NCBI GenBank assembly: GCA_030550155.1
Contig: JAUQPZ010000003.1
Coordinates: 22,916-86,915, forward strand
Reading direction: 5' to 3'
From: Thermoproteota archaeon
GTDB lineage: Archaea > Thermoproteota > Nitrososphaeria_A > Caldarchaeales > Calditenuaceae
Length of the DNA stretch: 64,000 nucleotides
Shown here: positions 5,320 through 56,573 of the stretch, piece by piece
Layout: every line of letters begins with the position of its first letter
How positions within the stretch are numbered: the stretch's first letter is position 1
Program-made: the position numbers and the translations under genes
The notes under the pieces: model-generated
Database searches by the model: none
What the model was told of the DNA's origin: nothing
What the model saw: the letters and a program-made list of their open reading frames with translations, nothing else

Positions 5320-5868
5320 TTGTATGGGAGGGGAGACCGCGGGGAGACAGACCTCTTCGGCGGAGGCAGGGTTCCAAAGAACCATCCTAGGGTAGAGTGT
5401 TACGGGGAACTTGACGAGCTCTCCTCTATAATCGGCCTCTGCAGGTCGCTGCTGAAAAAGAGGCACCGAGATCTGGACGAGATATTGAGAGGCGTGCAGG
5501 AGGCGTTATTTAGGATCGGCGCTGAGCTAGCTTCTGCAGACAGAAGTAGACTAACGATAGAGCTGGCAAGTGAGAATGATGTTGAGGCTCTCGACAAGCT
5601 CATCGAGGAGTTCGAAGCCAGACTTCCACCCCTCAAGCACTTCATCTACCCTGGTGGCTCGCTGACTGGAAGCATGCTCCACGTAGCTAGGGCTGTCTGT
5701 AGAAGAGCTGAGCGGAGTGCCGTGGCCCTAAGCTTAACAGAGCAAGTCAACCCATACATCCTGAGCTATCTCAACAGGCTCTCAACCTTGCTCTTCATAC
5801 TCGCAAGGCACGTTAACCTGAGCGAAGGGGTCGGAGAAGAAATCTGGCGAGGACGCGGGCTAGGCTAG
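5320..5868 (+). CDS. PduO-type ATP:cob(I)alamin adenosyltransferase
   Basis: 182 aa. N-terminal signature GDRGETDL...RVECYGELDELSSIIG is the hallmark of PduO/MMAB-type corrinoid adenosyltransferases. Confidence 0.85.
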   Translation: MYGRGDRGETDLFGGGRVPKNHPRVECYGELDELSSIIGLCRSLLKKRHRDLDEILRGVQEALFRIGAELASADRSRLTIELASENDVEALDKLIEEFEARLPPLKHFIYPGGSLTGSMLHVARAVCRRAERSAVALSLTEQVNPYILSYLNRLSTLLFILARHVNLSEGVGEEIWRGRGLG

Positions 5869-6554
5869 ACAGCCTTTAACCCCTTCTTCCTCACCTTAAT
5901 GAGCTCTAAGACCAGATATTCGGCCGAGTCTACGGCCTCCTCAGCGGTGAAGATGCTAAGATATGAGGAGCTGAACATCATGTTGGCCGTCGGAGGCCTA
6001 TATGTCCTGTCATAGCCCGACCAGAGCTGGAGCAACAGCCGCATCATGGGGAAAATGTTGAAGGAGTAGCTCAGGCCTCCCAGCTTCTCCTTCTTCCCGT
6101 CAATCGTTTTGCAGGACGCATCAAACCCCTGCGGGTCCTGTCCGAAATGGTCGATAAGCGGCCTGTAGGCCCGCCTCATCATCTCTCCCGCATAAGCCTG
6201 ACCATTCGGAAACTTCTCCAGCGGCACCCAGTCCCCAGGCTTTTCTCCACGATACCTTGCCAGATATTTTATGATCAGCTGCGAGAGCTTGGACGAAGGT
6301 GGCTTATGAGTTACGGCGTCCGTGACCATGCCTGAGGAGAGGTCTAAGACGTATGACCCGTTTAAGACATTGACGAGAAATCTGTCGCCTTTCCCCTCAC
6401 GCGGTGGGAGATGAACCACGTGACATACCCTAACAACATGATCCGGCTGGCGCTGTCTCAGCTCAGCTAGCAGGTCGTCCAATCGCCCCCCATGCATAAT
6501 TATCCCAGCCAATACGGGAGAAAAAAATTTAGCGTTAAGGTATAGGCTCTGCAA
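5865..6554 (-). CDS. hypothetical protein
   Basis: 229 aa ORF overlapping the 3' end of the adenosyltransferase gene by 4 nt. No motif I recognise. The true start may be an internal Met (MHGGRLDD...). Confidence 0.45.
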   Translation of the reverse strand: MQSLYLNAKFFSPVLAGIIMHGGRLDDLLAELRQRQPDHVVRVCHVVHLPPREGKGDRFLVNVLNGSYVLDLSSGMVTDAVTHKPPSSKLSQLIIKYLARYRGEKPGDWVPLEKFPNGQAYAGEMMRRAYRPLIDHFGQDPQGFDASCKTIDGKKEKLGGLSYSFNIFPMMRLLLQLWSGYDRTYRPPTANMMFSSSYLSIFTAEEAVDSAEYLVLELIKVRKKGLKAV

Positions 6555-7395
6555 ACCCTAAATCCATGCCACGGGGAAAATAGAGGCTTGGCGGGGGTCT
6601 ATACCTCTATACGATACTGAGAACCGACCCCCAGAAAATGGAGGAAGAGGGGATTTATGGGCAATGTGTAAAAAGTCCGGGAGGGGCTATAATAAGACTT
6701 TACAAGCTTTACTATATGCTGAATCTATATCTTGGGCAGATCCGACATCACCACCTCCCAATCGGTTGAAAATCTGAGAGCAGGGAAGGCGGGGAGGGAG
6801 AAAGCCTACATGGTTCAGCACGCAATGGGGCTATGGCTTAAAGCCTCTTGACACGCCGCTTCCCAGATGGGAGAAGACGTATGGCTCTGTCGGTGCGCTG
6901 CTGTAAGCAATTGCCTAGTTCAGGCAGGGCGAGGGAGGCTTCCGCCGATACACTTCCATAATCCACGTAACACCGCAAGATGGAGTCTCAGACCTCTGAC
7001 CATTAACCTTAACGGCGAGTGAGTATTATTAATGCGAGTTTCTCTCAGTACCAAATATCAAGAGATTTTGATACGGGTTCACCGCGCAACTATTGCTCAT
7101 GTTTCGGCAGATGTCTTCCTACAGTTTAGAGTTCCCTTCAAGATCTCTTAATCTCTTAAATGTTAGATAAATGAGTGGCTGTGAAACGTTCATAGAGGCT
7201 TCGATGGTGCCCTTTATACATAGATGTATCTGTGGGGGGTTCTGAGAGGACTGCTGAGGCCAAACCATTCTACGCTTAGCACACCAAACGGCCCAAAGCC
7301 TTGAAGGAAAGGACAATGTCTAAGGTCAGGATGAATTCGCGAAACCTAAGCATCATAAATAAAATAATTTTTAGCATCACTGCATGTATGTTGGC

Positions 7396-7959
7396 CTAAT
7401 CCCCGTGATCGTGGCTATGGCCCTCATGCGATCCGTCCATAGGCGTCTCGATTAGCTGTTCCTTGGCCTCAAAATCCACTGTAGCCCCGCTGGCTAGGAC
7501 TAACCTTATCTTCAAGGTATGGATGCCCTCAGGAATCTTTGAAAGTATCATCACATGATAACCTTCTCCCTCCAAACCTAGCGCACGGACCTCGCCGCGA
7601 GGCGGAATACAGATCTTCTCAACCTTCCTCATCGTGGCTACGCCCCCTTCAATCACCGTGATATGGAGCTCGGCCCTCAGCCCCTTGGGTTCAAGAGTCT
7701 CCGCGGCGACGATGCAGGACTCTGAATATCCATGATTGTGGGCAATAAAGAAAACACCCGCAGCCATAGTTCCACGTCTGAAGAAGGCTCCATGGACCTC
7801 GACCGCCTCTTCCGTCACTCCTGAAAACAGGAAAAATACTCCCACTACGACGAGCGCCGCCGCAACTACCGCCAATATGAGGAGCATAGGTCTCGTCAAC
7901 CCTGCATCTCTGCGGAAAAAGTGGTGGTAGCGCTTATCCATGTCCATATGTTGGGACAT
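7396..7959 (-). CDS. membrane-anchored protein with His-rich C-terminus (putative metal-binding)
   Basis: 187 aa. One N-terminal TM helix (LLILAVVAAALVVVGVFFLF), an extracytoplasmic beta-rich domain, and a C-terminal HEGHSHDHGD tail. Confidence 0.5.
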   Translation of the reverse strand: MSQHMDMDKRYHHFFRRDAGLTRPMLLILAVVAAALVVVGVFFLFSGVTEEAVEVHGAFFRRGTMAAGVFFIAHNHGYSESCIVAAETLEPKGLRAELHITVIEGGVATMRKVEKICIPPRGEVRALGLEGEGYHVMILSKIPEGIHTLKIRLVLASGATVDFEAKEQLIETPMDGSHEGHSHDHGD

Positions 7960-8060: not shown

Positions 8061-9170
8061 ATGGGAGTCAGGGTTGCAGGCATAGACCCTGGGACTAGAA
8101 GCTTCGACATCCTCGGGCTTGAAGATGACAGGGTTATCCTTGACGTCTCCATACCTTCTGAGGAGGTTGCAGCGAGGCCTGGCATCCTTATCGACGTTTT
8201 AAGGAGGGCGGGGCCTTTGGACCTAATCGTCGGCCCCTCGGGATATGGGATAGCGCTGAAACACATCTCGGAGATAGATGACAAGGACATCTTCTTGATG
8301 ACGCTGGTAAGGCCTGAGGAGTCGGATATACCTGTCCTAGTCGGTCTGAAAAGGGTTGTTAAAGAGCTGAGGAAAACAGACCTCAACATCTACTTCATCC
8401 CGGGCGTGGTCCATCTTCCCACAGTTCCGGCATACAGAAAAATCAACGCCATCGACATGGGTACCGCCGACAAGCTTTGCTGCGCGGCCCTAGCGCTCTA
8501 CGACTACACTACAAAGAGGAGCCTACCCCTAAGCGAGGCTTCAGTCATTCTAGTAGAAGTTGGCTACGGCTATAACGCGGTAATAGCGATTGACCGCGGA
8601 GTTGTGGTTGACGGAGTCGGAGGAACAAGGGCGGGGCCGGGCTTCCTAACCTCAGGAGGCCTCGACGGCGAAGTAGCGTATCTGTTGGGCGCCCTCAGGA
8701 AGGAGATGCTGTTCAAGGGCGGTGTAAAGACAATAGCGGGTGGAGATATCACGCCTGAATCTCTGCCAGAAGAGGCCCGAGTCAGCGGGCCGGCGAGGAT
8801 TGCCTGGTACTCTTTTTTGGAGGGCGTCGAGAAGAATGTCTGGTCCCTGGTGCCTGTCATGAGTAGGGTAGACGCTATCTTGTTGTCAGGGAGACTCAGC
8901 AGAGTTGAAGCGATCTGCAGCGAGCTCGCAAAGAGGCTAAGCAGGCTCGCACCAGTCAGCAGAGTAGGGGGCTTCAAGGCCGCGTCGAAGGAGGCGGCAC
9001 AGGGAGCGGCCCTTATAGCCAACGGCCTTGCAGGCGGATTCGCTGAAGGCCTCATCGAGCACATGAGGATAAGAGAGGCTGGTGGGACGGTTTTGGACTA
9101 TGTCGTCGTCGAGGACTTAAAGCAGATTTATCTTAGAGAGAGTACAACATTAAAAAATAAACAACTTTAG
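8061..9170 (+). CDS. ASKHA-superfamily (actin/Hsp70/sugar-kinase fold) ATPase-like protein, DUF1464-like
   Basis: 369 aa. N-terminal phosphate-1 motif VAGIDPGTRSFDI and later Gly-rich motifs (DGVGGTRAG, IAGGD) match the ASKHA fold. No specific kinase family signature. Confidence 0.55.
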   Translation: MGVRVAGIDPGTRSFDILGLEDDRVILDVSIPSEEVAARPGILIDVLRRAGPLDLIVGPSGYGIALKHISEIDDKDIFLMTLVRPEESDIPVLVGLKRVVKELRKTDLNIYFIPGVVHLPTVPAYRKINAIDMGTADKLCCAALALYDYTTKRSLPLSEASVILVEVGYGYNAVIAIDRGVVVDGVGGTRAGPGFLTSGGLDGEVAYLLGALRKEMLFKGGVKTIAGGDITPESLPEEARVSGPARIAWYSFLEGVEKNVWSLVPVMSRVDAILLSGRLSRVEAICSELAKRLSRLAPVSRVGGFKAASKEAAQGAALIANGLAGGFAEGLIEHMRIREAGGTVLDYVVVEDLKQIYLRESTTLKNKQL

Positions 9171-26807: not shown

Positions 26808-27065
26808 TTGACTGAAGAAAAAAAGTTTAGCAAAAAAGGGTATCTGACCCAGACAGGTGAGGGGGAGCTCCTCCTCGTCAACGAGAAAGGCGTCGCATAC
26901 CTCGTAAACGAGTCAATCGTAGCTATATGGGACAGGTTTGAGGGGAGAACCATGGAGGAGGTTATCCAAGAGGTGGCTGAGATCTCGGAGCTGAGCCCCG
27001 ACGAGCTCCGCGAACCAATAAGAGAGCTTGTTGACGCCCTAGTTAAGGCAGAGCTACTCGTTTAG
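26808..27065 (+). CDS. PqqD-like small protein (RiPP recognition element-like)
   Basis: 85 aa on a TTG start. Pattern LLLVNEKGVAYLVNESIVAIWDRFEGRTMEEVIQEVAEI...LSPDELREPIRELVDALVKAELL matches the PqqD/RRE consensus. Confidence 0.5.
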   Translation: MTEEKKFSKKGYLTQTGEGELLLVNEKGVAYLVNESIVAIWDRFEGRTMEEVIQEVAEISELSPDELREPIRELVDALVKAELLV

Positions 27066-47423: not shown

Positions 47424-48053
47424 TTGTCGTCAGCACACTTGGTCGAGTTCTTCACAGAGGTTCAGAAGAGGCTGTCATGGTTGATAAGAGTCTCTCCCCT
47501 GGACCCACGGGAGGTAGAGCTCCTCTGTGGCCTCGACATCTCATACAGGGGCTGTGAGGGCGCCGCGGCAGCTGTAACGTGGTCTACAAGGACTAGGAGC
47601 ATAACGGAGACCGCAACCTACCGGGGCAGCGTAATCTTACCCTACATCCCTGGACTCCTCTACTCTCGCGAGGCCCCCCTCATGCTAGCGGCTCTAAAGA
47701 TTCTGGAGACGAAGCCCAGCCTTCTGTTAATCGATGGCCATGGCTTAGCCCATCCTAGGAGGGCGGGTCTCGCGAGTATAATGGGTCTGCTTGCGGAGAC
47801 GCCTTCTATAGGTGTTGCTAAGTCGCTCCTTTATGGCACGGTCAGGGCTGAGGATGGTGTTGAGTATCTTGAGGCGGATGGTGAAGTTGTCGGAATAGTT
47901 TTGAAGAGCGCGAGGGGTAGGAAGCTCTACGTTAGCGTAGGATATAGAGTAGATGTTCAGTCAATCTTGGGGCTGGTGAGCCTGCTGGGTGAAGACCTAG
48001 CTCAGCCCGTCCGCGAGGCACACCGCCTCTCTAAGGCGGCTCTAAGGGTTTGA
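47424..48053 (+). CDS. nfi: endonuclease V (deoxyinosine 3'-endonuclease)
   Basis: 209 aa. Motifs CGLDISY, LIDGHGLAHPRRAGLASIMGL and GVAKS match Nfi catalytic regions. Confidence 0.85.
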   Translation: MSSAHLVEFFTEVQKRLSWLIRVSPLDPREVELLCGLDISYRGCEGAAAAVTWSTRTRSITETATYRGSVILPYIPGLLYSREAPLMLAALKILETKPSLLLIDGHGLAHPRRAGLASIMGLLAETPSIGVAKSLLYGTVRAEDGVEYLEADGEVVGIVLKSARGRKLYVSVGYRVDVQSILGLVSLLGEDLAQPVREAHRLSKAALRV

Positions 48054-49055
48054 TACGGCTTCCGGCTCCTCACCCAGCGCTTTCGCCGTGCGGTATTCCT
48101 GCGTCAGCCTCTCGGGCCACCCCCCTTCTATGAACCTTATCGCCTCCATAGCGGCCATGCACCCGAATCCAGCAGCCGTTATTGCTTGCCTATACCTCTT
48201 GTCGTGAACGTCGCCCGCCGCGAAAACGCCCCTCACGCTCGTCTCAAGACCATTTCTAAGCCTGATGTAGCCCTCCTCATCAAGCTCTATCTTCCCTCTA
48301 AATATCTCGGTGCTTGGCGCATGGCCGATCGCCACGAAAAGGGCGTTGCAAGGTATAACGCGCTCCTCTCCAGTTAACGTGTTCCTGATCTTGACGCCCT
48401 CGACGCGCAACTCACCCAGAACATCTACGACGACGCTATTCCAGACGAAATCTATCTTCGGGTTTGAGAGGGCTCTCTCCTGCATGATTTTAGAGGCCCT
48501 CAGCTTATCCCTTCTATGAACCACCACAACTTTCTCGACGAGATTAGATAGAAAGAGTGCATACTCCATCGCAGAGTCCCCGCCACCCACGACGACTGCG
48601 CATTTGGCACCCTTGAAGAGCGGGCCGTCGCAGGTCGCGCAGCTTGAAACACCTCGGCCTAGCAGCCTCTTCTCGGACTCGAGCCCCAGCCACCTAGGCG
48701 AGGCCCCGGTAGCTATGATTACAGTCTTAGCGAGAAAAGTATTACTGTCCGTCATCACCTTTCTCGGATACGTGTTGAAGTCGACATCCACTGCGTCTTC
48801 GTAAACTATCTCCACGCCCATCCGCTCAGCCTGATTACGCATAGCGTCCATTAACTCAGGGCCCATCACGCCTTCAGGGAAGCCCGGAAAATTCTCGACA
48901 ATACCGGTCAGCATTAGTTGTCCGCCCGCCGTGACACCAGCTATTATCAGCGTCCTGAGATTGGCTCTCGCGGCGTAGATTCCTGCCGTGTAGCCAGCGG
49001 GGCCTGAGCCAATTATTACGACATCATATAGCTCGCTATTCTTGTTAGACTCCAT
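48042..49055 (-). CDS. trxB: thioredoxin-disulfide reductase
   Basis: FAD motif YDVVIIGSGPAGYTAG, redox-active SCATCDG, and NADPH-binding second Rossmann motif. The ORF track extends to 49109 (TTG); the Met just before ESNKNS...YDVVIIG is the more likely start. Exact coordinate is approximate. Confidence 0.85.
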   Translation of the reverse strand: MESNKNSELYDVVIIGSGPAGYTAGIYAARANLRTLIIAGVTAGGQLMLTGIVENFPGFPEGVMGPELMDAMRNQAERMGVEIVYEDAVDVDFNTYPRKVMTDSNTFLAKTVIIATGASPRWLGLESEKRLLGRGVSSCATCDGPLFKGAKCAVVVGGGDSAMEYALFLSNLVEKVVVVHRRDKLRASKIMQERALSNPKIDFVWNSVVVDVLGELRVEGVKIRNTLTGEERVIPCNALFVAIGHAPSTEIFRGKIELDEEGYIRLRNGLETSVRGVFAAGDVHDKRYRQAITAAGFGCMAAMEAIRFIEGGWPERLTQEYRTAKALGEEPEAVSNP

Positions 49056-49581
49056 TACGCCTCTCATATTACATGTGCTCAAATATATATTCCTGAGGTG
49101 CGCGGTCAATTCAGTGATAAAAAGGCGTCAACTCTTCAAATGTACTAGATGCGGCTACGAGGTCTATCTTCAGGCGTGGAAGGCTGAGTGCCCTTCGTGT
49201 GGAAGTGGTTTTACTCTCGCCCCCGTCGCCGGCGATGAGGAAAAGACAAGGAGCCGGATGATCGGGTATATTCCACCTATCTTCTCGGCGGCCTATCTCG
49301 CCTTGACTCTGTTCATTCCCAAGATGACCCTAGCACCGCTTCTCCCATGGCCCACGACCCAAACGGTGGTTCTCGCAATCACGATACTCTCACTCACATC
49401 ATCTACGCTGAGTAATCTTCTGTCCATCGTGGCGGGCGCCATCATAACATCCCTTCATATGTTGCTGGTTGCGCCATCAAATCCCGCAGAGATAGGCGTA
49501 GCTCTTCTCCCGTTAGGGCTGTCGGCCTCAGCGTTAATCAACGAGCTCTCGATTAGGAGGGTTATTTGGAAGGCGGTGTGA
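49042..49581 (+). CDS. zinc-ribbon membrane protein (hypothetical)
   Basis: 179 aa on a TTG start. CTRCG...CPSCG zinc ribbon followed by 3-4 TM helices. Its N-terminus overlaps the trxB start, so the true start may lie downstream. Confidence 0.4.
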   Translation: MLDSITPLILHVLKYIFLRCAVNSVIKRRQLFKCTRCGYEVYLQAWKAECPSCGSGFTLAPVAGDEEKTRSRMIGYIPPIFSAAYLALTLFIPKMTLAPLLPWPTTQTVVLAITILSLTSSTLSNLLSIVAGAIITSLHMLLVAPSNPAEIGVALLPLGLSASALINELSIRRVIWKAV

Positions 49582-54077: not shown

Positions 54078-56573
54078 TTATGAGAGATTTATGGTTAGCT
54101 GCTGCCTCTTTCCGTTGTCTCTGATCTTTACCTGTAGGAGCTTTTTAGCGTCGTCAAATATCCATCCTTGCTCTGCCTTCAGCATCTCTTCTGGCGATGT
54201 GGCTTGGGTCAGTGCTGCGTCGTTGAGAGAGACTCTTGTGGGCTTCTTTTCGACTAGGTGGATGATTATCATGAAGGAGCGCGGCGAGGGCTTATAGGCG
54301 CCTTCTCTATCACCAACTTGGAGCACCAGCCTGTCTCCTTCTTTTGTGAACGTGAAGGGCGTCAGGAGGTAGATTCCTTTTTCATAGTCTCGGGTTTCTC
54401 CGTCGTCTTCATAGAGTGTGAACATTGAGGGCTTGTCTGAGGGGTATACGTGGATGAAGAGTGTGTCAGCTGGCTTCTCATCGACGTATAGCATACTCGG
54501 CTGCATGGGTAGGATGGTTCCAGACTTGATGAAGATGGGCGCCCTGTCTATGGGCGCGTCCACCTCCAGGTATGCGGGTCCCTGATGCTTTGATTCGCTC
54601 CAGTAGTCTATCCACTCGCCCTTAGGGAGATATACTATGCGCCTTCTGGAGTCTTCGTGGATGATGGGTGCCACGAGTATGAATTCGCCTACGAGAAACT
54701 CGTCTTGGATGGTGTATGTGTTAGGGTCGTCCTGATGTTCGAGGAGGAGGGGCCTGATAATTGGGTGGCCTGTCTTTGATGCCTGGTAGAGGAGTGTGTA
54801 GAGGTAGGGTATCAGCTGGTATCGCAGCTCCAGGAACTCCCTGATTACTCGGAGGTATTTTTCCCCGTATACCCATGCTTCCTGGTCGAAGGAACCTAAT
54901 ATCGTGTGGTTTCTGCAGAGAGGAATGAAGGCCCCGATCTGATACCATCGCGTTAGGAGCTCCGGAGTCGCTGTGGATGCGAAACCGCCTATGTCGTCTC
55001 CAGCCATCGGGACGCCTGAGAGACCTAGGTTCAGGAGCATGGGTATCTGCAGAGCCAGGTGCTCCCAGCTCGACGTGTTGTCTCCTGTCCAGACGGCGGA
55101 ATATCGCTGTATGCCCGCGTAGGCCGCCCTGGTGAGTATAAATGGCCTCTTGTTAGGCATCAGCCTCTTTAGCCCCTCGTAAGTGGCCATGCACATTAGA
55201 AGCCCATACACGTTGTGAATCTTTTCATGTGGGGAGTTCTGTCCACGGTCGTAGTGAATTACGTCGAGGTCCATGGTCCTGTGGGTCATTAACTCGATAT
55301 AGGGTGCTCCTCTGCCTAGCATGAGATTCATGTATGGCTCGAGAAGTGAGGCGAGCTGCCGGGGGATACTTCTTTCAACAAAGACGGCGGGCTCGTTCAT
55401 GTCGTTCCAGATGCCCGCCAAACCCAGCTTGACGTACTCTGCGTGGAGGCTGCCCCACCACCCCCTCACGTCCTCTCTCGTAAAATCTGGGAAAGCGCAG
55501 GTCCCGGGCCAGACCTTCGCGAGATAGAGCTCGCCCGTCGCATATTTGCAGAAATAGTCCTTCTGTACACCTTCAACGAAGATTTTGTTCGAAGGGTCTG
55601 CCTTGACTCCCGGATTTACTATGGGTATGAGCCTGAAGCCCTTGGCCCTCATCTCTGAGACAAGCCTCGCCGGGTCGGAGAACCTGTTTCTGTCCCACGT
55701 GAATGACTGGTAACGTTCCTTGTAGTGGATGTCAAGGTAGAAGACGTCGCATGGTATGCGGGTCTTCCTGAATTCGTCGGCCAGGAGGAGGAGCCTCTCG
55801 GCGGGGTAGTAGCTGTAGCGTGACTGCTGGTGTCCGAGGGCCCAGCGGGGGTGTAGGAGGGGGCGGCCGGTCAGCTCCGTATACCTTTCTATAACCTTCT
55901 TGACGCTGGGGCCATAGATGAAGTAGTAGTTGAGTTCCCCTCCATCGGCCTCGAAGCTGTAGAAGTCCTCAGCCGTGTGACCCATGTCGAAAATCGTTTT
56001 ATATGTGTTGTCGAAGAAGATTCCGTAGGCCTTTTTTCTCCGGAGGCCTATGAAGAATGGAATGCTCTTGTATAGAGGGTCAGTTTCAGGCCCATACCCG
56101 AATGCGTCTGTGTTCCACATTACCATGACGCTCCGTCTCTTGTCTAGGCGGCCCGTCTTCTCGCCGAAGCCGTAGAAGTGCTCATCATATTCGAGGCTCT
56201 TCCAGCACTTCACTCGCCTTCCACTCCACCCAATTCCGTAAGGAGGATAATCAGAGTTGATCGTGAATCCCTCTGTGTCGAGGATAGCTAGCCTGCAGGG
56301 GGAGCGCTTGACCTCTACAATAAGCTCCGCGGTCCTTATTCTCAGCACCTCGCCAGCGTCCTCGACCTTAAAGTCTGCTGGAGGCCAGTCCCTCTTCACA
56401 ACCGCCCACGAGTGGTCTGGCTCGAAGACGCCTTGTGGCGCAAGCCTCACTCTTAACAGATCAGGAGCTAGGATTTGCAGCTCCACCTTGGCCGCGCCGC
56501 AGACCAGTAAGACCCTATTGTCTTTTACCTCGTAGGATGTTATATCGCCAAGGAGGATAAAATCCTGCTGCAT
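54078..56573 (-). CDS. GH31 alpha-glucosidase
   Basis: 831 aa. Catalytic nucleophile motif GIWNDMNEP and GH31 domain order (N-terminal beta-sandwich, (beta/alpha)8 barrel, C-terminal beta domains). Confidence 0.9.
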   Translation of the reverse strand: MQQDFILLGDITSYEVKDNRVLLVCGAAKVELQILAPDLLRVRLAPQGVFEPDHSWAVVKRDWPPADFKVEDAGEVLRIRTAELIVEVKRSPCRLAILDTEGFTINSDYPPYGIGWSGRRVKCWKSLEYDEHFYGFGEKTGRLDKRRSVMVMWNTDAFGYGPETDPLYKSIPFFIGLRRKKAYGIFFDNTYKTIFDMGHTAEDFYSFEADGGELNYYFIYGPSVKKVIERYTELTGRPLLHPRWALGHQQSRYSYYPAERLLLLADEFRKTRIPCDVFYLDIHYKERYQSFTWDRNRFSDPARLVSEMRAKGFRLIPIVNPGVKADPSNKIFVEGVQKDYFCKYATGELYLAKVWPGTCAFPDFTREDVRGWWGSLHAEYVKLGLAGIWNDMNEPAVFVERSIPRQLASLLEPYMNLMLGRGAPYIELMTHRTMDLDVIHYDRGQNSPHEKIHNVYGLLMCMATYEGLKRLMPNKRPFILTRAAYAGIQRYSAVWTGDNTSSWEHLALQIPMLLNLGLSGVPMAGDDIGGFASTATPELLTRWYQIGAFIPLCRNHTILGSFDQEAWVYGEKYLRVIREFLELRYQLIPYLYTLLYQASKTGHPIIRPLLLEHQDDPNTYTIQDEFLVGEFILVAPIIHEDSRRRIVYLPKGEWIDYWSESKHQGPAYLEVDAPIDRAPIFIKSGTILPMQPSMLYVDEKPADTLFIHVYPSDKPSMFTLYEDDGETRDYEKGIYLLTPFTFTKEGDRLVLQVGDREGAYKPSPRSFMIIIHLVEKKPTRVSLNDAALTQATSPEEMLKAEQGWIFDDAKKLLQVKIRDNGKRQQLTINLS

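Follow-up and report, generated by a model that had tools for sequence, protein, structure and literature searches.

Lineage-specific intergenic insertions and 'orphan' non-coding spacers occur in prokaryotic genomes. In archaea, species-specific intergenic sRNAs and long 5' untranslated regions are known from RNA-seq in Sulfolobus, Haloferax and Methanosarcina, and these are often poorly conserved and weakly structured. Mobile elements of the IS200/IS605 type lack terminal inverted repeats and carry subterminal hairpins. Here we describe a large spacer between two minus-strand genes, encoding a PCu(A)C-type copper chaperone (PCuAC) and a DUF3786 protein, in a 64-kb stretch of archaeal DNA (64,000 nt, referred to as the window). 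It resembles the orphan spacers in that it is confined to one species, the syntenic site is empty in relatives, no signal of coding, of an RNA family or of repeats is recognisable in it and its composition is native-like. It differs from them in being large (~0.83 kb of extra DNA) and in lying precisely between a conserved promoter element and the former start codon of that element. An insertion as such is an ordinary kind of genomic event. We consider it probable, with reservations set out below, that the gap is an inert, lineage-specific, non-coding insertion of ~0.83 kb between the PCuAC and DUF3786 genes.

The original prediction had pointed to an ORF-free gap of ~840 bp between the two flanking genes. 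The gap is real, the largest ORF inside it being only 65 aa long, and, when genes are mapped greedily from ORFs of 90 aa or more, 6555..7395 (841 bp) is the largest gene-free interval of the window, followed by intervals of 485 and 478 bp. The true spacer is nevertheless larger than first noted (Table 1), because DUF3786 most likely starts at ATG 6497 and not at TTG 6554; the latter is the start in the ORF list of the window, whereas public gene calls and homologues use the former. The exact 210-aa product of the ATG is present on 24 public contigs, and exact DUF3786 and PCuAC proteins are found in NCBI MAGs labelled Nitrososphaerota archaeon, in JGI 3300000865 and in Logan assemblies. The genes of the neighbourhood are PPDK, DUF1464, PCuAC, DUF3786, CobAT, SHMT and PriL. 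Spacers are mostly under 150 bp in the compact, ~54% GC genome of the host, and the gene map bears out that many genes in the window overlap by 4 nt. The 485- and 478-bp gaps hold plausible smaller ORFs (85 and 179 aa), and these two gaps as well as those of 399 and 328 bp all have coding scores above that of 6498..7395; the latter is therefore the sole large stretch without coding signal in 64 kb. Its longest stop-free run is 71 codons, compared with a mean of 88 in shuffled sequences. The gap had also been described as more AT-rich than its flanks, which is correct relative to the window as a whole (GC 0.464 vs. 0.541) but not relative to most other large gaps, five of the eight others measured having a GC content of 0.46-0.48 and the remaining three of 0.53-0.63. 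Since low GC is typical for gaps here, it constitutes neither a special signature nor a mark of foreign DNA.

Two side observations concern the next-largest gaps. The ORF at 26808-27065 (+) plausibly encodes an acidic protein of 85 aa. That at 49042-49581 (+) plausibly encodes a protein of 179 aa with an N-terminal CxxC...CxxC motif and hydrophobic segments; it overlaps the start of the 48042-49109 (-) gene, so that start sites there are in doubt.

Table 1 Features of the PCuAC-DUF3786 spacer and its flanking genes, in window coordinates.
Feature	Position	Strand	Remarks
DUF3786 protein, 210 aa from ATG 6497	5865..6497	-	Pfam PF12654, E=2e-26; downstream flank
Whole non-coding spacer	6498..7395		898 bp, PCuAC stop codon to DUF3786 start codon
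Lineage-specific insertion, ~0.83 kb	6517..7340 (approx.)		Ends uncertain by tens of bases
Proximal A/T run GCTAAATTTTTTTC	6520..6533	-	Ends 23 nt upstream of ATG 6497; contains U7 tract
Inverted repeat GGGGGTC/GACCCCC	6593..6632		26-nt loop; hairpin-region folding z -0.8 / -1.1
43-codon ATG ORF, judged no gene	6638..6769	+	Coding score -2.57 per 100 nt vs. gene mean +5.29; uncalled by gene callers
Purine tract AGGGAAGGCGGGGAGGGAGAAAG	6782..6804	+	23 nt, one pyrimidine
Longest gap ORF, 65 aa, judged no gene	7119..7316	-	Coding score -6.55 per 100 nt; frameshifted in a strain lineage; no Pfam match
Distal TATA-like box AAAATTATTTTAT	7359..7371	-	24 nt after PCuAC stop; 13/13 match to L013
PCu(A)C-type copper chaperone, membrane-anchored, 187 aa	7396..7959	-	Pfam PF04314, E=2.7e-10; upstream flank

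An important question is whether the gap is shared with other organisms. The host and its relatives had been taken for Thermoproteales. The organism is instead a Caldarchaeales/"Aigarchaeota" (Nitrososphaerota) archaeon, and the literature places it among the Calditenuaceae/Caldarchaeales from springs of the Gongxiaoshe and Great Boiling Spring type; a literature search returned nothing on the PCuAC-DUF3786 spacer locus. For comparison we used 13 related loci from Caldarchaeales/"Aigarchaeota" MAGs and metagenomes, e.g. Candidatus Calditenuaceae and Archaeon HR02. DUF3786 identity of the relatives is 62-83%, with 83% for L013, the closest, 76-79% for L008-L012, 71% for L014-L018 and 63-66% for L019-L023. 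The order PPDK-DUF1464-PCuAC-DUF3786-CobAT-SHMT is kept wherever the contigs reach, some of them covering only part of it. Where both genes are present in the 13 related loci, the PCuAC-to-DUF3786 spacer measures 59-110 bp, and the extra ~0.83 kb is therefore specific to the species of the window. Only at its two ends does the gap resemble the ancestral spacers. The distal end resembles the spacers of the relatives over ~37 nt from the PCuAC stop codon, a stretch that includes AAAATTATTTTAT, and at the proximal end about 12 nt before the DUF3786 ATG can be aligned to them by eye; the matches at both ends delimit the insert to roughly 6517-7340. Neither blastn (word size 7) nor tblastx found any similarity between the interior and the rest of the window or the loci of the relatives. 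Conservation of the gap in syntenic regions of relatives, which the original prediction had proposed to look for, is thus absent from all sampled loci, and what the comparison reveals is a species-specific insertion of ~0.83 kb within an ancestral short PCuAC-DUF3786 spacer.

Within the species, the 898-bp gap does not differ among seven contigs, which are too alike overall (99.94% identity over 12 kb) to inform on constraint. A second strain lineage (99.7% identical) carries the insert too, with a gap of 897 bp, and the insert is fixed in both strain lineages. Between the lineages there are 2-3 differences in the 898-bp gap vs. 35-41 in ~12.5 kb of mostly coding flanks, which amounts to the same rate. 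One difference, a 1-nt indel at 7240 in L024-L027, frameshifts the 65-aa ORF, and another, at 7353, lies just downstream of the distal TATA-like box.

The flanking genes vary in ways of their own. Seven to nine of the 35-41 inter-lineage differences in the 12.5 kb fall within the 564 bp of the PCuAC gene (7396-7959), i.e. at 4-5 times the local average, and this cluster could be a recombination patch or could reflect diversifying selection on the copper chaperone. In addition, a 2-nt indel at 9135-9136, in the 3' part of the DUF1464 gene (8061-9170, +), sets apart L003, L005 and L006; DUF1464 is called there as 365 aa and not 369 aa, so its C-terminus is strain-variable.

We next consider what the insert might encode. 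A 3-periodic Markov model trained on the genes of the window gives the gap a mean best-of-six score of -2.71, compared with -2.84 ± 0.82 for shuffled sequences and an average of +7.1 per 120 nt for real genes in the window. All gap ORFs score below the gene mean, and the only one above zero is a 39-aa ORF at 6732-6851 (+). In Pfam, the best match to six-frame fragments of the gap (E 0.21) was not significant, and the concatenated six-frame translation had no match at E<=10 among 5.8 billion proteins. Taken together, there is no positive evidence for the decayed gene that had been offered as one candidate. Like a pseudogene, the gap is ORF-free, of gene-like length and bordered by intact genes; unlike one, it retains neither protein similarity nor codon periodicity, and the relatives have no gene at the site.

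The ATG ORF of 45 codons that had been proposed at ~6639 does exist, starting at 6638 and being 43 codons long, but its coding score is negative. That one or more small proteins are encoded in the gap, for example by this ORF or by the 39-aa ORF, is very improbable in our view. A TATA-like sequence, CTATACGA, does lie at a promoter-like distance of about 28 nt upstream of the ATG at 6638, and the coding score rises to 5.4 in one 120-nt window, 6721-6840 (+), with p=0.055 vs. shuffles. Against this, the whole-ORF scores of the 43-aa and 39-aa ORFs are -2.57 and +0.76 per 100 nt, respectively, vs. the gene mean of +5.29; the 43-aa ORF has no match among 1.84 billion representative proteins, and no homologue of either was found there or in the 5.8 billion. 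Moreover, the small ORFs are uncalled on every public contig and absent from the relatives.

Two further candidates for coding were rejected. In the JGI 3300000865 annotation, a 'gene' of 191 nt with a product of 41 residues is called within the gap at 6716-6906 (+), corresponding to L002 5592-5782 (-); the interval is not an open frame when translated, and its fold (z 0.13) is no more stable than that of shuffled sequence. Stop-codon recoding (Sec/Pyl) fails as well, given that TAG, TGA and TAA terminate 26, 22 and 9 genes of the window, respectively, and that read-through frames score negative. As an aside, over ~175 codons upstream of the ATG (-, 6498-7023) the DUF3786 frame is interrupted by four TAG codons but by neither TGA nor TAA. 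The length of this TAG-only run has p=0.044 vs. shuffles and that of a 151-codon TGA-only plus-strand frame p=0.11, both before multiple testing; we judge the 175-codon run a coincidence, given its strongly negative coding scores and the fact that no stop codon ends more genes here than TAG.

Where could such DNA come from? Inert DNA of this kind would either have been captured during repair or be what erosion has left of foreign or decayed DNA. A search for terminal inverted or target-site repeats gave best end-to-end alignment scores of 14 (inverted) and 15 (direct), the shuffle mean being 14.65 (inverted). Tandem or dispersed repeats above chance are absent from the gap, and no second copy of the insert was found in the 64-kb window or in 20+ other loci. 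The A/T-rich promoter-like motifs GCTAAAAATTATTTTAT and GCTAAATTTTTTTCT, which lie at opposite ends of the gap, might suggest a duplication; as their alignment is not above that of shuffles, this idea was dropped. The insert has no blastn match among 50,697 phage and 72,556 plasmid records, and four 21-25-mers taken from it are absent from IMG/VR, both results being weak evidence given that all of these collections are poor in archaeal elements. An integrated virus or plasmid fragment is not supported, there being no viral or plasmid match in them and no tRNA gene for an att site; indeed, a tRNA/tmRNA scan found neither kind of gene in the whole 64-kb window. Like MITEs and IS remnants, including those of the IS200/IS605 type, the insert is a non-coding sub-kilobase segment with a hairpin near one end (6593-6632). 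It differs from them in having no terminal inverted repeat or target duplication above chance, no second copy in the window or the relatives' loci, no Y1 or TnpB transposase remnant in any frame and no HEARO/omega-RNA-type match in Rfam.

These data bear directly on the idea that the insert descends from a protein gene or mobile element (an IS, a MITE or a fragment of an integrated element) that has decayed beyond recognition, which we regard as decidedly unlikely. It would be consistent with the lineage-specific nature of the insertion, with a left third whose plus strand is rich in purines (0.59), as sense strands of genes sometimes are, and with a coding score that is least negative in plus-strand frames throughout 6560-7040. 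It is at odds with the lack of protein similarity in any frame and with coding scores equal to those of shuffles, with the lack of terminal repeats, of a target duplication and, in the window and the relatives' loci, of a second copy, and with the absence of matches in the phage, plasmid and viral collections together with a GC content like that of native intergenic DNA. The remnant explanation concerns the origin of the insert, and is compatible with the inert insertion that we favour.

A structured RNA was another candidate of the original prediction, and this has found no support. A covariance search with Rfam returned 0 matches at the gathering threshold in the whole window; within 6400-7500 there are three matches at E<=10, all at chance level, with 17, 17 and 15 bits vs. 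gathering scores of 45, 33 and 39. No tRNA is present in the gap, and a fuzzy scan of both strands of 6480-7420 for C/D-box sRNAs (C box RUGAUGA, D' box CUGA, C' and D boxes, guide spacers of ~12 nt) gave 0 matches. The single C/D-box match of the window, at 54362-54412 (-), lies inside a gene, has weak boxes and was dismissed as noise. Compared with dinucleotide shuffles, 160-nt windows of either strand have folding z-scores between -1.3 and +1.7; the values for a putative 816-nt minus-strand RNA and for the region 6716-6906 are +0.62 and +0.13, respectively. Folding is thus like that of shuffles, and the region is absent from all relatives; no homologue of the insert was found outside the species (relatives' loci, rest of the window, phage and plasmid records). 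Of the three findings that the original prediction had named as refuting it, two therefore apply, the lack of an Rfam match and the lack of conservation in relatives. A scan for sigma-70 promoters and intrinsic terminators, which is not designed for archaea, was at or below chance.

The local features that had been singled out are present. The 7-bp stem GGGGGTC/GACCCCC with its 26-nt loop is exactly as described (arms at 6593-6599 and 6626-6632); the gap contains two 7-bp stems vs. 2.2 expected in shuffles. As a curiosity, the arms of the second stem (6580-6586 / 6604-6610) alternate with those of the first in the manner of an H-type pseudoknot. The purine-rich tract is also genuine and mildly unusual, with p about 0.014 vs. 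shuffles and 0.028 vs. tiles of the window, before multiple testing. A long gene-free region in a compact genome, and the hairpin at 6593-6632 with its interleaved second stem, could speak for a structured ncRNA of a known or new class (SRP RNA, RNase P RNA, C/D, H/ACA or a riboswitch-like leader) or for a DNA element such as a replication origin. This is very unlikely and largely refuted: the Rfam result is null, there is no C/D pattern, the z-scores of -1.3 to +1.7 and the stem count are those expected by chance, and, for an origin, there are no repeated boxes and no orc1/cdc6 among the neighbours. In addition, an essential RNA or an origin would not be missing from the syntenic site of all relatives.

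The ends of the gap are more informative than its interior with respect to expression of DUF3786. The AAAATTATTTTAT motif is conserved in the spacers of the relatives, where it is located 22-23 nt upstream of the DUF3786 ATG, and a profile of those spacers matches the window at 7395..7359 only (E=0.01). No Shine-Dalgarno-like sequence precedes the DUF3786 ATG in the window or in the relatives, which, together with the position of the box, implies a leaderless or near-leaderless mRNA in the latter. Archaeal TATA boxes are centred about 26-27 nt upstream of the start site. The spacing of the proximal A/T run to the ATG is that of the TATA-like box in the relatives, and the run resembles the CTAAAT-type motifs that precede other start codons of the window by 27-45 nt. 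Judged by its sequence and position, the proximal run is likely the present TATA box of DUF3786. The gene is intact and would still be expressed as a leaderless or short-leader mRNA, from TAAATTTTTTT (6531->6521, -), and the distal box (7371->7359) would have been left stranded about 860 nt upstream of the ATG.

The retention of the conserved distal box at the far end of the gap means that it could fire into the insert. If still active, it would give rise to a non-coding minus-strand transcript starting near 7335. Oligo-U tracts serve as termination signals in archaea, and such a transcript might end at U5 (6674-6670) or at U7 (6527-6521), or might continue as a long leader; the U7 tract is a possible stop signal for transcripts running through the insert. 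The earlier suggestion of an extended 5' leader or regulatory region for DUF3786 is therefore viable and indirectly supported, in that the promoter element of the orthologous spacers is present upstream of the stretch. In this scenario the retained ancestral promoter would drive minus-strand transcription of the insert, giving a young, species-specific and largely unstructured ncRNA of ~0.66-0.81 kb or a regulatory 5' leader of ~0.84 kb. We see this as possible, if unlikely. The distal box agrees at 13/13 positions with the closest relative and its motif is conserved in the other spacers, the U5 and U7 tracts follow it on the minus strand, and the insert is fixed in both strain lineages with a divergence no higher than that of the coding flanks. 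Conversely, the insert has no thermodynamic structure and no homologue was found, the lack of a Shine-Dalgarno sequence combined with a proximal run at the ancestral 23-nt spacing favours a leaderless mRNA, and the strain difference at 7353 falls just downstream of the distal box. Known archaeal intergenic sRNAs share with the putative transcript the intergenic location, the upstream promoter-like element and the downstream oligo-U on the same strand; at ~0.7-0.8 kb it would be much longer than is typical. The combined outcome, in which an insertion just downstream of an intact promoter has created both a new, weakly structured ncRNA of ~0.7-0.8 kb (or a ~0.84-kb DUF3786 leader) and a replacement promoter at the proximal edge, is quite unlikely; if true, it would show promoter capture giving birth to a transcript.

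Returning to the inert insertion, coding, RNA-family and mobile-element signals are absent from the insert and the distal box is retained. As it shows no sign of a protein, of a known or stably folded RNA or of a mobile element, the insert is most probably ordinary filler, and from these data we infer that it has no function and that the proximal run is the promoter in use. Several points argue against the inert explanation. It is unusual for an insert of this size to persist in a compact genome, and the insert sits exactly in the interval between promoter and start codon. Neutral DNA might be expected to diverge faster than is seen here, the counts being too small for a test. Finally, the purine tract (p about 0.02) and the interleaved 7-bp stems (6580-6632) are mildly non-random.

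With this result, one candidate ncRNA or pseudogene can be set aside, and a compact thermophile genome is shown to contain a clean insertion of ~0.83 kb that can be dated. If the stranded promoter does transcribe, the locus would illustrate on a small scale how archaea can gain a new non-coding transcript together with a replacement promoter. The insert could also be used in hot-spring metagenomes to recognise this Caldarchaeales population at the strain or species level.
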